Notes: generated by a model from the sequence alone, not told the origin. A DNA stretch of 63,339 bases, filler included, from 3 parts of 3 records of this genome joined end to end with filler, not necessarily neighbours in it; one strand, 5' to 3'; counted from the whole stretch's first letter, positions 394 through 23,461 are shown. Numbers and translations: made by a program.

Positions 394-1383
394 ATGGACG
401 ATTTAAGCAAGATTTTAGAAAGCTCATTTGCCAAAGCCGGTGCACGTGAAGACGCACACTGGGAGACGCTTACGGCTGCCCGCGGCGAAATCGCCAGTCG
501 CGCAAACGTTCCGGCGGTTACGGCACGCAAATGGATGTCCATTCTTGAAAGCGGCTCCGAAACAATCTCAGCTCCGAGCAATCAAAAAATCATCGAGAAA
601 ATCACGAAATGGGCTGGCCCTGAATCAACGGCGCAATGGCTTGATGCTTATCGTGATTTTGAAGAGGCCAGCCGTCGGACCCACAGGGTTGGGCTTGAAC
701 TCGCTGATCATGCCGGCATTGATGCCCGACTTGATCTCGAAGGCTTGCGCAATGAAGGTGCACTTCGGCAACGCCTGGTCTCGATCGCGGCACGGGTCAA
801 CCCAACATTGGACGTCCATCTGCCCAAAGAGATATTTGCCGAAGGTCCTGGTTTGGTTGCATCAGGATTAAAAAGCACAGACCGAGCCGAAGTTGCGGGA
901 ATGTATGAGCCCTTAAAGCATCTTGCCACAATCTCTGTTTCTCCGCGGTTTGATCGCGAAGACACCGCATGGCATGAAGCATGGCATTCTATCGAGCCGG
1001 TGCTGTCGGAGACAGAAGCCAAGGCCCTTCAAAAAGCCTTTCCCTCCAATCAGCACATGACAAGCCCTGAACGAGTTGCCGTTGCTTTTGCGCGCTGGGC
1101 AAAACTGAGAGATCGCCTGCCAGCCCCCCCCTCCTCCTCTTTATCGGCACGTAGCATAGCCTCAAAACTGAGAAGTTCGCTGCTGCCAGCTGGTCAAGAC
1201 GCTGTGAATGCAATTTTTGAAAAGGGCTATGACGGTACGCTTGGCAAGCGGATGGCGGTGATGATGAAAGATACCTATCCGGCCTTCCTTCAGAAGACAC
1301 AAGCCCCTTCCAAAGCGGCAAAAACATCCGCAGGAGAGGCTGCACCTCAAGCAAAGAGAAAATCACGGAGGATCCGCGTATGA
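394..1383 (+). CDS. Zincin-like (HExxH) metallopeptidase-domain protein with a basic C-terminal tail (polyvalent-protein MPTase-like)
   Basis: AGMYEP...TAWHEAWHSIEP (HExxH at 973-987), downstream ERVAVAF helix; ends APQAKRKSRRIRV. Paralogous domain in ORFs 2383 and 20849. Confidence 0.75.
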   Translation: MDDLSKILESSFAKAGAREDAHWETLTAARGEIASRANVPAVTARKWMSILESGSETISAPSNQKIIEKITKWAGPESTAQWLDAYRDFEEASRRTHRVGLELADHAGIDARLDLEGLRNEGALRQRLVSIAARVNPTLDVHLPKEIFAEGPGLVASGLKSTDRAEVAGMYEPLKHLATISVSPRFDREDTAWHEAWHSIEPVLSETEAKALQKAFPSNQHMTSPERVAVAFARWAKLRDRLPAPPSSSLSARSIASKLRSSLLPAGQDAVNAIFEKGYDGTLGKRMAVMMKDTYPAFLQKTQAPSKAAKTSAGEAAPQAKRKSRRIRV

Positions 1384-1625
1384 CGGATGTAGGAGGCATT
1401 GCGGCAGACCAGCTGGCGAGTTACGTCGAGCGGATTGAAAGGCTTGAGGAAGAAAAGGCCAACCTCATGGCCGACATCAAGGAAGTTTACGGCGAAGCAA
1501 AAGCCCTGGGCTATGATGTGAAAATTCTGCGTCAGATCATCCGCCTCCGCAAAATTGAAGAGCACACCCGGGCTGAACAGGAACAGATCCTGGAAATCTA
1601 CAAACGCGCACTGGGGATGTCATGA
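1380..1625 (+). CDS. gapR: GapR/DUF2312 (UPF0335) nucleoid-associated protein homolog
   Basis: QLASYVERIERLEEEKANLMADIKEVYGEAKALGYDVKILRQIIRLRK is the DUF2312 signature; ATGA overlaps with both neighbours. Confidence 0.9.
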   Translation: MTDVGGIAADQLASYVERIERLEEEKANLMADIKEVYGEAKALGYDVKILRQIIRLRKIEEHTRAEQEQILEIYKRALGMS

Positions 1626-20813: not shown

Positions 20814-20848
20814 AAGAAGGTTATTACTTTAAACGCGAGGATTGGCCG

Positions 20849-23461
20849 ATGCTGCCCCAGGACATTGATCGCTTAGAGAAGGCCCATTTGCAGTCACGCA
20901 TGCTGTTTGGTGAAACCCGCCGAAACTATGTTGCCAAACGTGCCGGCTTGTTGAACGAGCTGACCAAAGCCGGTCGCTTTCCAAAGGAAAATGCCGAACG
21001 TCTTGTGGAAAGTGCTGAAGCAATGTGGCTGCCGGGTTTCGATACGTTTTCCGCCCGTGGCCCTTCCATGCAGACCTCTCCGAATGCGGAGTATCTCGAA
21101 GCTATTCGCAAGGAAGTCGGGCCGGAACAGTTTAACTTGTTTGTTTCTTCATTGCGGGACTTTCGGGTGCGTGAGCATCAAGATCAGCAGCTGACCGATC
21201 AACTTGCCCGTTTTGTTCCCCCTGAGCGGTTCGCTAAACTTGAAGCCCAGACCACCGATCTTGAAGGATATCGCAACGATCTAGCCAACATGGTGCGCCA
21301 GATTAACCCGGCCATGTCTCTGGCAGGTGTTGAGCGCGGCTTTATGGCAGAGCAGGACCCGTCCATTGATCCCCTCAGCCAAACCATTGCGCTTTCGCTT
21401 GACCCCTCCCAGTTCGACCAGAAGAAGGCGGTTCATAAAGAACTGTTTCGCAGTGTTGCGGAAGGTCTGACTGAGAAACAACGCAAAGTGCTCGATCAGG
21501 CTTTTGGGTTGGCCACCCGGATTTCACGAGATGCTGGCAAGACCTGGGAAGAAGTGCCTGAAGGTGGTCAGGTAACACCAGATTCGGAAGATCCGTCTGT
21601 TGGCACTCTGACCGATGAAGACGGTGTCGTTATTCAGGCAGGGATCCGTATCCGCACGGAATCCTTTGACCGAGATAAGACGATAACGCGTGCTGCGGAT
21701 GCCTTTAGTGCCCTGGTCGCCGACAAGCGCAAACCAGCGCCTTTGGCCGAGCAGGCCCTCAAGCCCTTCCGTACCTTCTTCGAACGCAGCGCCAACCTTT
21801 TGCACGGCCGCGGCTTCCAGTCTGTTGAGGATGTCCTGAAACGGGCACAGGACGGCACTGTAGGGGCGCGCGCGGCGCGGATTGCTGCAAAACCGGGCAT
21901 TCGCATGCCTCTTCCAAAGGACAATCCTGGAGGGGCCGATGGCGTGCGCACCGCGATCGCCAAAATGACCTCTCAAGAGCTGGCGCTGGCCATCGGACAT
22001 CAAAAAGAAGTACTCGCGGATAAACGAAGGGCACAGTATTCGCTGGTAAACCGCATCTTCCGATATCGGGATGTCAGCGGGACGGCCGAGACCACCCACA
22101 GCCAAACCAAAGGCAACAAGCACAAGCGGCGCGACCGGGCCGAGGTCAAGCAATTAACCCGGGCACTTACCGCCTTGATGGCTGAACACCGTAAACGTGC
22201 TTCTCACAATGTTGCCGGGGAGTTCAAGATGCCAGATCCTGGCGCGCGTAATGTGATGTCTTCACCGCGCGAGGAGTTCGCCAATCAAATGAACCGCCAA
22301 CAAAGTGCTCAGATGCCTGCACATGAGGGTCATGTCGCGGTTTCAGCGTCACAAGAACAGAACGGCCGCTTTGATGTAAAGTGGCATGATCCGGACACCG
22401 GCAAAGGCTTTCCTCTGGCGGGAGATGCTAACGAAGCAGGAGCGTTTGCGATGATCCAGGCGTTTCAAAGTGTCACTTCTGGTCCCAAAAGCCCGATGGC
22501 AGAACGGCTTGTCGGGGAAATCAATCGTGCAGGCGCGCTGAACAATGCCGATATTAATCTTCTGCGGAGCAGCGACCTTATCGACAAGGATCTTGATGCA
22601 GCTATCGGACGCCGAGATCTCAAGGCTTTTGTTTATCCGCTCAAAACCGGTGACGTGATTTTCCAGATGTCGGATGGCAGTTGGCATGCTGGCAAACGCG
22701 AAGAGTTTATTGCTGTGGCTAAACAGACTGGTGATCAGCATATGCGTGCAGCTGCTGATGAACTTGTCAAAAGCACAGGCAAGGTTCTTCCGTTTGAGCG
22801 GACCCGCGACGGCAACACCCCCTCGCCTTCGCCATCATCCTCAAGCGCAGCACGTATGGATGTCCCTGAACCACGGCCGACAGCACCAGCGGCCAGCCTC
22901 GACAAGATGGCGGCTTCAGTCGGTATGGCAAAGCCTTATGTGCTCGATACAAACGACGACGGGCTGAAGGATGCTGCCAGACGGGATCTTTCGGACATCT
23001 CGGTCTCAAACCTGTCAGAAATTCACAAGGCGACGGAACAAGCCCTTCGTTCTGCCAGTACACCTGCTGAGCGCGATGGTTTAATGCGTGGCAAGTTAAT
23101 GGTTGCGGACGTGTTGAAATCCAAGACGGCCGGTGTCAACGTATCGGCCCAACCTGCAACCAATCCAAGTGTGTCTGTTGCATACAAGGTAACGACAGAC
23201 AAGCTGTTGGGGGATGAGCGGAAACGTCTTGAAGGGCTGTCTGCCAAAGACTTGAAAGGGATGTATAAGAAGACGCAAAATGCGCTCGAAACATTGCCTA
23301 AAGGGGGCAATGCCACACCTCGCGATCTTAGGGAACGTCAGCACTTGACCCAAGGCAAGACCGCTCTTCAGGAAGTGATGCGTAACAAGGGAATTGAGTT
23401 ACATTCATCCAATGAGCAGCCGGGCCAACAACGCGCGCGTAAGGCGGGACCTAAACGCTAG
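20849..23461 (+). CDS. 870-aa protein with an inactive zincin-like domain, two C-terminal helical repeats and a basic tail; paralog of the giant protein's C-terminal part
   Basis: LANMVRQINP...AVHKELFRSV...AADAF...FFERSANLLHGRGFQSVEDV aligns with the giant protein's LTDMVSEINP...GLHELYHSL...AAEAF...LYQRMNNILHGNGFRSWQDV. Ends QQRARKAGPKR. GAGGA RBS upstream. Confidence 0.85.
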   Translation: MLPQDIDRLEKAHLQSRMLFGETRRNYVAKRAGLLNELTKAGRFPKENAERLVESAEAMWLPGFDTFSARGPSMQTSPNAEYLEAIRKEVGPEQFNLFVSSLRDFRVREHQDQQLTDQLARFVPPERFAKLEAQTTDLEGYRNDLANMVRQINPAMSLAGVERGFMAEQDPSIDPLSQTIALSLDPSQFDQKKAVHKELFRSVAEGLTEKQRKVLDQAFGLATRISRDAGKTWEEVPEGGQVTPDSEDPSVGTLTDEDGVVIQAGIRIRTESFDRDKTITRAADAFSALVADKRKPAPLAEQALKPFRTFFERSANLLHGRGFQSVEDVLKRAQDGTVGARAARIAAKPGIRMPLPKDNPGGADGVRTAIAKMTSQELALAIGHQKEVLADKRRAQYSLVNRIFRYRDVSGTAETTHSQTKGNKHKRRDRAEVKQLTRALTALMAEHRKRASHNVAGEFKMPDPGARNVMSSPREEFANQMNRQQSAQMPAHEGHVAVSASQEQNGRFDVKWHDPDTGKGFPLAGDANEAGAFAMIQAFQSVTSGPKSPMAERLVGEINRAGALNNADINLLRSSDLIDKDLDAAIGRRDLKAFVYPLKTGDVIFQMSDGSWHAGKREEFIAVAKQTGDQHMRAAADELVKSTGKVLPFERTRDGNTPSPSPSSSSAARMDVPEPRPTAPAASLDKMAASVGMAKPYVLDTNDDGLKDAARRDLSDISVSNLSEIHKATEQALRSASTPAERDGLMRGKLMVADVLKSKTAGVNVSAQPATNPSVSVAYKVTTDKLLGDERKRLEGLSAKDLKGMYKKTQNALETLPKGGNATPRDLRERQHLTQGKTALQEVMRNKGIELHSSNEQPGQQRARKAGPKR

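Follow-up and report, generated by a model that had tools for sequence, protein, structure and literature searches.

The window analysed here, a stretch of DNA of 63,339 nucleotides, is a chain of three contigs joined by spacers (N44-TTAATTAATTAA-N44, at 31719-31818 and 49951-50050), so that gene neighbourhood across the spacers is meaningless; the finding reported here, a set of basic C-terminal tails, is confined to the first contig (positions 1-31718). This contig begins within ssb and continues with the genes for a 329-amino acid (aa) protein, a GapR-like protein, a 214-aa protein, a giant protein and an 870-aa protein, followed by umuC and umuD. The giant combines methylase, helicase, MutS-I-like DNA-binding and zincin-like domains, and for this reason is called a polyvalent protein; its earlier description as a methyltransferase/helicase polyprotein of about 6,100 aa holds, with N6_Mtase, AAA_34, Helicase_C_4 and MutS_I matches in a single open reading frame (ORF). 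The 329-aa, giant and 870-aa proteins each end in a short Arg/Lys-rich tail, and the three proteins are probably injected into the recipient during conjugation of the plasmid to which the block belongs. Coordinates of all features are given in Table 1.

The C-termini read ...APQAKRKSRRIRV in the 329-aa protein, ...TQQRTKSSRRKGPSR in the giant and ...GQQRARKAGPKR in the 870-aa protein, exactly as they had been quoted in the reading of the sequence alone (the sequence-only reading) that first linked them to type IV secretion. Over the last 15 residues the net charge is +5, +6 and +4, respectively, with 6, 6 and 5 Lys or Arg residues (K/R). The proteins encoded between these three lack such tails, again as had been claimed: the GapR-like protein ends in ...YKRALGMS and the 214-aa protein in ...PLPCIIGA. 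The label "HD-like" that had been given to the 214-aa protein is unsupported, as no Pfam match is found for it even at E-values (E) up to 10.

The charge of the tails was compared with a background of 355 ORFs of at least 100 aa from 400 kb of a chromosomal contig (G001:C1) of the nearest genome; these ORFs were picked greedily by length, and those overlapping a longer ORF by more than 30% were dropped. A net charge over the last 15 residues of at least +4 is reached by 18 of the 355 background ORFs (5.1%), of at least +5 by 10 and of at least +6 by 2; at least five K/R occur in the last 12 residues of 10 ORFs, and at least six in a single one. Tails of net +4 or more are found in 12 of 92 ORFs on the plasmid-like contig G001:C11, versus the 18 of 355 on the chromosome (Fisher p 0.017). 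In the giant, net +6 is reached by a single window out of 6,112, the final 12-mer, and across 24 members of the three families the tail has, or nearly has, the highest basicity found anywhere in its own protein.

Searches of a collection of 5.8 billion proteins with the three proteins gave six relatives of the 870-aa protein (34-64% identity), seven of the 329-aa protein (63-70%) and six of the giant (47-67% over its last 824 residues), several of which are named as Thalassospira proteins. Conservation in homologs had been set beforehand as a test of the sequence-only reading: a net-positive tail behind a variable linker is present in all 22 relatives fetched (six of the giant, six of the 870-aa protein, nine of the 329-aa protein and one further giant fragment), and it persists in orthologs as low as 34-47% identity. 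The tail ends in [RKQ][KR][AST]GPK[RM] in the 870-aa family and in [RK][RK]K[GS][PR][SG][RI] in the giant family; in the 329-aa family the end is Arg-rich, mostly xRRxR[RLV]. The last 10 residues consist of 44-53% K/R and 0-1% Asp or Glu (D/E), compared with 12-15% K/R and 13-15% D/E in the entire proteins, and identity within the last 10 residues is 0.32-0.58, versus 0.11-0.21 in the preceding 20 (ungapped values, in which insertions and deletions lower that of the linker).

The tails are real, conserved and non-random. A chance or compositional coincidence could draw on the roughly 5% of background ORFs that reach net +4, and on the common ancestry of two of the three tails described below; it is nevertheless extremely improbable, given the retention of the tails in all relatives examined from three families, their strong depletion of acidic residues, their position at or near the most basic stretch of each protein, and the absence of any match in the 400 kb of chromosome to a profile of the module to which two of them belong.

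Table 1. Features of the first contig of the window, with the tails and C-terminal modules listed first
Feature	Position	Strand	Details
Basic tail of the 329-aa protein (P0001)	1345..1380	+	PQAKRKSRRIRV; 6 K/R in 12, zero acidic residues
Basic tail of the giant	20662..20697	+	RTKSSRRKGPSR
Basic tail of the 870-aa protein	23423..23458	+	GQQRARKAGPKR
C-terminal module of the giant	20389..20697	+	aa 6021-6123; HMM E 2.7e-20
Module of the 870-aa protein, first, internal copy, without tail	22910..23146	+	aa 688-766
Module of the 870-aa protein, second, terminal copy, with tail	23147..23458	+	aa 767-870; HMM E 1.6e-20
329-aa zincin-like protein (P0001)	394..1383	+	HEAWH aa 194-198 (nt 973-987), invariant Glu226
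Giant polyvalent protein	2329..20700	+	6,123-aa ORF from TTG; likely ATG 2383 = 6,105 aa
First N6-methylase-like region of the giant	6019..6360	+	Pfam N6_Mtase, aa 1231-1344, E 1.7e-11
Second methylase module of the giant	8392..8562	+	TAGNGA S-adenosylmethionine motif aa 2022, catalytic NPPF aa 2075; read from translation
Strawberry-notch-type superfamily 2 (SF2) helicase of the giant	9556..11634	+	AAA_34 aa 2410-2685, Helicase_C_4 aa 2878-3102
MutS domain I-like DNA-binding domain of the giant	15688..15948	+	aa 4454-4540, E 9e-10
Zincin-like domain of the giant	17446..17754	+	aa 5040-5142; only HExxH of the giant (HELYH aa 5106, nt 17644-17658)
870-aa partner protein (P0005)	20849..23461	+	
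Degenerate zincin-like domain of P0005	21188..21874	+	aa ~114-342; HKELF at nt 21434 replaces HExxH
ssb 3' end, acidic ...DDEIPF tail, truncated by contig start	1..192	+	sequence
Terminator-like hairpin with T run, 3' of ssb	223..252	+	
Sigma-70-like promoter upstream of the 329-aa gene	337..364	+	10/12 matches; consensus match only
GapR-like DNA-binding protein	1380..1625	+	Pfam GapR_DNA-bd, E 3.6e-32
214-aa protein, family unassigned	1622..2266	+	ORF
Terminator-like hairpin, 11 pairs, 3' of the giant gene	20728..20763	+	
umuC-like and umuD-like genes, end of the conserved block	23965..25694	-	

Sequence comparison places the giant's tail and that of the 870-aa protein in one homologous C-terminal module. 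A full HMMER search with the last 1,200 residues of the giant against 1.84 billion representative proteins found 60 proteins, many of them 1,600-7,100 aa long and having the zincin-like domain in common; others, of 270-820 aa, align to the last ~270 residues only. A tail of at least +4 is present in 15 of the 59 further matches (the sixtieth, P0023, was known before), and the remaining matches include, besides fragments, a second family whose conserved C-terminus differs. Alignment of the final 110 residues in 32 hand-chosen proteins (the three close families plus matches with similar-looking C-termini) gave the plan L-x-x-L-[PS]...T, a loop, G-x-x-L-x-x-E-h-x-x-R, a variable linker, a basic cluster and a terminal G-x-[EKSG]-[RML]. 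The module measures about 90 aa, with three predicted helices, the linker and the basic end G-x-x-[R/M]. The 329-aa protein has the basic tail and lacks the helical part of the module.

A hidden Markov model (HMM) of the module was searched over 2,962 ORFs from the window's contig, G001:C11, the 400-kb stretch of the G001 chromosome and five further loci; it matches only the giant, the 870-aa protein (two copies) and proteins of 2,592, 452, 140 and 219 aa, the last of these weakly (E 0.0097). The 2,592-aa protein is a fusion with an N-terminal zincin domain, and the 452-aa protein (L045 5564-6919, from G004:C8) is a DUF4172-Fic-helix-turn-helix protein by Pfam and has the tail ...SRGRGGMEM. 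The best match lies at the extreme C-terminus in each protein, the sole significant internal match being the first copy in the 870-aa protein. A further copy is found directly 3' of a gene for a HipA-like kinase, with a hipB-like gene upstream (L056, G001:C15:12779-16015, ~1501-1737, minus strand); this copy ends in ...TRSKRSGLGR, is in a different frame without a start codon of its own, and may be a fusion broken by a frameshift or an error of assembly. Among 401 genomes searched with the profile, a strong match is found in G001 alone (matches in three others, at E 4e-4 to 8e-4, were treated as chance), so the module is rare among these genomes. A Fic protein encoded by the complete Thalassospira plasmid considered below ends in ...DVRKPRKL and is undetected by the module HMM.

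Structure predictions suggest flexible tails in the two proteins modelled. In the AlphaFold2 models, residues 304-329 of the 329-aa protein and residues 853-870 of the 870-aa protein have a predicted local distance difference test (pLDDT) score below 50, which predicts disorder. In the 870-aa model (mean pLDDT 67.5), helices are predicted at residues 785-795, 799-815 and 824-846 of the terminal module (pLDDT 76-87) and within residues 704-760 of the internal module (pLDDT 74-88). The 329-aa model, from an alignment of 10 sequences, has a mean pLDDT of 61.8 with residues 131-187 of the zincin core below 50; a Foldseek search of the PDB with this model, whose core is poorly modelled, gave nothing at E 0.001 or better.

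The family to which the block belongs comprises conjugative plasmids, about 100-170 kb in size, that occur in Thalassospira-type Alphaproteobacteria and encode a VirB/VirD4-like type IV secretion system (T4SS). Positions 1-25569 of the window match contig G001:C11 (107 kb) at 94-98% identity, and this contig has a VirB4/B8/B9/B10/B11/VirD4 cluster as well as genes for a replication initiator, two relaxase-type proteins, a topoisomerase and Ssb. The complete circular 166.8-kb plasmid NZ_CP136683.1 of Thalassospira lucentensis carries the same block; its VirB2...VirB11-VirD4 genes are convergent with the block, and the coupling-protein gene ends 0.6 kb from the homolog of the 870-aa protein gene. 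On another Thalassospira contig (L043), VirB11-VirD4 lie 3.5 kb upstream of the 329-aa homolog, and a single 149.8-kb contig of G004 encodes the coupling protein together with three module proteins. The cognate type of coupling protein occurs in each of the five genomes or records examined, and in four of them its gene shares a molecule or contig with the cargo genes.

The most likely reading, more probable than not, is by analogy with known secretion signals that the module and tail constitute a bipartite T4SS export signal resembling the BID domain with its positive tail, and that the cargo is injected into the recipient; this reading is drawn from a module that is always C-terminal, portable, present on toxin-type enzymes and linked to VirB/VirD4 genes. 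The terminal basic cluster and the conserved G-x-x-[R/M] point to recognition of a free C-terminus. In the mechanism proposed, the VirD4-type coupling protein of the plasmid would read module plus tail as the export signal and pass donor-made proteins along the mating channel to the recipient. Once inside, the methylase-helicase would shield or modify the plasmid as it arrives, and the zincin would cleave the polyprotein into functional pieces. The sequence-only reading is partly supported: it withstood both of its refuting conditions that are open to computation, loss of the tails in homologs and lack of a T4SS, and the occurrence of the shared module on unrelated cargo strengthens its basis. 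That these elements define a new class of bipartite T4SS signal, in which a three-helix module showing no detectable kinship with BID, together with a G-x-x-[R/M] tail, tags a whole cargo repertoire that includes a ~670-kDa methylase-helicase-protease and Fic-type toxins, is a tentative proposal that may well turn out otherwise.

Precedents for C-terminal signals of this kind exist in several T4SSs. A cluster of positive C-terminal residues is described as a sufficient functional VirB/D4 signal (PMC3297438); in Alphaproteobacteria, BID with a positive tail is reported to mark relaxases as well as the toxins Fic and PezT for conjugative T4SSs (PMC6509941, PMC5675462); and the F-type T4SS is reported to move plasmid maintenance and leading-region proteins into recipients (PMC8406263). 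Like BID, the module consists of a conserved helical domain of ~100 aa with a short basic tail behind it, at the very C-terminal end; it is joined to cargo of unrelated kinds, a Fic protein among them, can be present in tandem copies (here in the 870-aa protein), and is found in conjugative elements of Alphaproteobacteria adjoining VirB/VirD4-like genes (as reported for BID in PMC6509941, PMC5675462); its presence on a Fic protein and, out of frame, beside the HipA-like gene matches the pattern described for BID-tagged toxins (PMC5675462). Unlike BID, which is a four-helix bundle with a hook, the module is predicted to have three helices per unit, in a model of moderate confidence; in addition, the relaxases of the elements studied here lack it, and its tail has a G-x-x-[R/M] motif of its own.

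The C-termini of Agrobacterium VirF, VirE2, VirE3 and VirD5 resemble the tails in being Arg/Lys-rich, net-positive and predicted to be disordered, and in belonging to proteins of an alphaproteobacterial VirB/VirD4-type system; the present proteins differ in that a helical module is coupled to the tail in two of the three and in that the recipients are presumably bacteria rather than plant cells. A positive-charge signal at the C-terminus of Agrobacterium VirB/D4 substrates, with its consensus, was reportedly described by Vergunst and colleagues in 2005. By description, the module can also be likened to XVIPCD of Xanthomonas T4SS effectors, a conserved C-terminal domain common to unrelated effectors that is said to be read by VirD4 (PMC8740702).

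Several findings weigh against an export signal, some of which concern the module. Seven module sequences have no Pfam match at E up to 10 and no sequence match in the PDB; compared with solved BID chains the module likewise shows no sequence match, although BID is very divergent and remote kinship is possible. The Pfam BID model (Bep_C_terminal, PF17841) has no match above cut-off in any of the five genomes or records and does not match the module genes. Foldseek with the 870-aa model found no match, and VIA-align returned generic helical matches only, the best being a hairpin like that of ribosomal L29 (Z 8.9, root-mean-square deviation 2.2, 67 aligned); the 50 VIA-align matches listed contain no BID chain, a result that does not show absence because the query was the 870-aa model and not the module alone. 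Since the giant and 870-aa tails are one homologous module, they are not independent signals, and on the most divergent plasmid, a complete one, the tails are weaker (net +4, +3 and +3). The relaxases of these elements, with which a comparison of C-termini had been proposed, contain no copy detectable with the module HMM, although BID systems tag relaxases.

Other adverse points concern the secretion system and its load. The sequence-only reading depended on an element with a T4SS, which is borne out for G001:C11, L043 and NZ_CP136683.1 and not for the window's own 31.7-kb contig, which starts in ssb and contains no T4SS genes; the linkage comes from the relatives. NZ_CP136683.1 is labelled "non-mobilizable" by MOB-suite in PLSDB; the record (L057, L061, L062) annotates VirB2, VirB9, VirB10, a T4SS ATPase, a coupling protein and a MobA/MobL protein, and its transfer system seems too divergent for MOB-suite typing. 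The giant, at ~670 kDa, would be far larger than any other known T4SS substrate.

Two observations touch the relaxases and BID. A relaxase-like protein of G001:C11 (23128-24582; weak Pfam Relaxase match, E 1.3e-4) ends in ...IRPKRKPTR, with a net charge of +5. Three ORFs of 211-235 aa on related elements match the same part of the Pfam BID model at sub-threshold E of 0.01-0.09 (W01:C1:98300-98452, G001:C15:18173-18337 and G003:C134:1716-1865); equally weak matches are found in 5 of 14 control genomes, and the three-ORF match is a lead only.

Basic tails are common DNA-binding devices, which also weighs against a role in export, and the topoisomerase of G001:C11 (25077-27554) has a Gly/Lys-rich tail of net +9 that exceeds those of the cargo. 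The tails could be nucleic-acid-binding elements that hold the enzymes on plasmid DNA, transfer being passive on the transferred strand and without recognition of the tail; the MutS-I-like DNA-binding domains, methylase and helicase of the giant suit such a role, and piggy-back transfer of polyvalent proteins on single-stranded DNA has been proposed by Iyer et al. (PMC5512222). This reading is quite unlikely, however, because the basic cluster is always within the last ~12 residues and ends in G-x-x-[R/M], because a conserved helical module goes with it, and because the module is also found on a Fic protein and on small proteins in which no DNA-binding part is recognisable.

The location of the block raises a different objection to protein transfer: its genes lie beside ssb and umuDC, and their expression could begin early in the recipient, like that of leading-region genes. 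If they are ordinary genes of this type, the module and tail would have some other common function in recipient or donor, for instance docking to a shared partner, assembly of the three proteins with one another, or membrane or nucleoid localisation, and no protein would cross the channel. The ssb and umuDC-like neighbours are typical leading-region company, a promoter-like site lies upstream of the operon, the relaxases lack the module, and leading-region genes of F and IncI1 plasmids are documented to be expressed early in the zygote (PMC8406263). A gene of 18 kb, on the other hand, would be slow to enter, to be transcribed and to be translated, and would offer poor protection at entry; a docking role also leaves unexplained the constant position of the motif at the extreme C-terminus and the presence of the same module on a Fic protein and next to a HipA-like gene. 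On this evidence expression in the recipient without protein transfer appears unlikely.

Delivery of polyvalent proteins by conjugation is a proposal already made; Iyer, Burroughs, Anand, de Souza and Aravind (2017) describe polyvalent proteins delivered with DNA, a parallel with DarB, and self-cleavage by zincins (PMC5512222). The main text of that paper does not contain the terms "secretion signal", "C-terminal signal" or "C-terminal tail" (its supplementary lists were not covered), and searches for a published link between Strawberry-notch methylase-helicases and T4SS export returned only that paper and a preprint on an unrelated integrative and conjugative element. The giant resembles the proteins described in PMC5512222 in being a giant multidomain protein of a T4SS-bearing element, with a methylase-SF2 helicase dyad, a putative zincin-type domain with HExxH, and MutS-I. 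It differs in its size, ~6,100 aa far exceeding the examples named in the available text, in a helicase of Strawberry-notch type, there called infrequent, in the lack of the ArdC-N "header" domain, and in that MutS-I is reported there for Bacteroidetes and Firmicutes and not for Alphaproteobacteria.

The parallel extends to phage P1 DarB, which likewise joins a methylase to a helicase, presumably acts on DNA as it enters the cell, and arrives as a preformed protein; the routes differ (capsid versus mating channel), as does the helicase subtype. Residues 1950-3250 of the giant, searched by tblastn against 50,697 phage records, match three records at 25-28% identity (one Bacteroides phage and two Acinetobacter phage contigs); P1 is absent among these matches, no direct comparison with DarB having been made.

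The entry of giant polyvalent proteins into the recipient, and their selection for export, have stood as a prediction since 2017, and a short, conserved and portable C-terminal tag makes this prediction directly testable. If the tag does direct export, a new type of T4SS signal would be defined, the giant would greatly surpass every T4SS substrate known, and the known size limit for such substrates would be raised several-fold. Plasmids would then share the "inject the methylase" tactic of phage P1, conjugation in these marine alphaproteobacteria would deliver a preformed set of protein tools together with the DNA, and the tag would provide a sequence handle for anti-defence proteins and toxins injected by conjugation in other plasmids.

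The description of the three tailed proteins as zincin-domain proteins stands in part: all three share the domain, and the HExxH motif is intact in the 329-aa protein and the giant and degenerate in the 870-aa protein. The zincin-like domain of the giant is matched in BLASTP by that of the 329-aa protein (E 2e-11) and that of the 870-aa protein (E 3e-7), and comparison of profile against profile gives a probability of 97.2% for the shared domain. An invariant downstream Glu accompanies HExxH in the 329-aa family and the giant; the motif is degenerate throughout the 870-aa family (HKELF or similar). As the domain has no match in Pfam (E up to 10) or among PDB sequence profiles, and the fold models are weak, the label "zincin" is based on the HExxH motif and on the context in which the domain occurs. 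In one relative of the domain ART-PolyVal is present, and a homolog gives a sub-threshold lead, with a score of 0.88, to a cluster in which 20% of the members have LPD23.

The helicase of the giant has the motifs GIGKG (aa 2440) and DESH (aa 2570); the motifs read in the giant include Walker A, besides NPPF, DESH and HELYH. By eye, the giant also contains several repeats of ~100 aa (...HHLPTGLP..., ...IHLASGTP..., ...ITHLPSGFS...) and three or four MutS-I-like units, and a Gly/Ala-rich hydrophobic stretch near aa 5868 is kept in four of five giant-family proteins scanned.

At the left end of the contig, identification of the truncated ssb is aided by the ortholog on G001:C11 (31728-32183), which matches Pfam SSB at E 1.4e-36. 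A megablast search of positions 1-24000 against the plasmid collection gave zero matches. Synteny with G001:C11 stops at 25569, a break that falls in the 5' part of umuD; the 55 bases that follow match the extreme end of contig C11 perfectly and the end of C15 at 83% identity, pointing to a repeat terminus. The segment from 25570 to 31718 is transposon-like, with an AAA_22 ATPase, a 568-aa protein (no match in a Pfam search), a resolvase, an SBF-family transporter, DUF6789 and a MerR-family regulator.

Eukaryote-type genes are present on the second and third contigs, where three SPRY regions, one HECT region, and VPS13 N-terminal, VAB and C-terminal regions are encoded within 32060-47130 and 50731-63337. 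These genes (32-63 kb) were considered as T4SS effectors of the plasmid and rejected, as they are on separate contigs and a search of positions 32001-52000 against G001 found no match. The SPRY, HECT and VPS13 genes are broken over several frames in a pattern like that of exons and short introns, with Cys-rich and simple-repeat ORF ends, and the two contigs are probably eukaryotic DNA in the same assembly.

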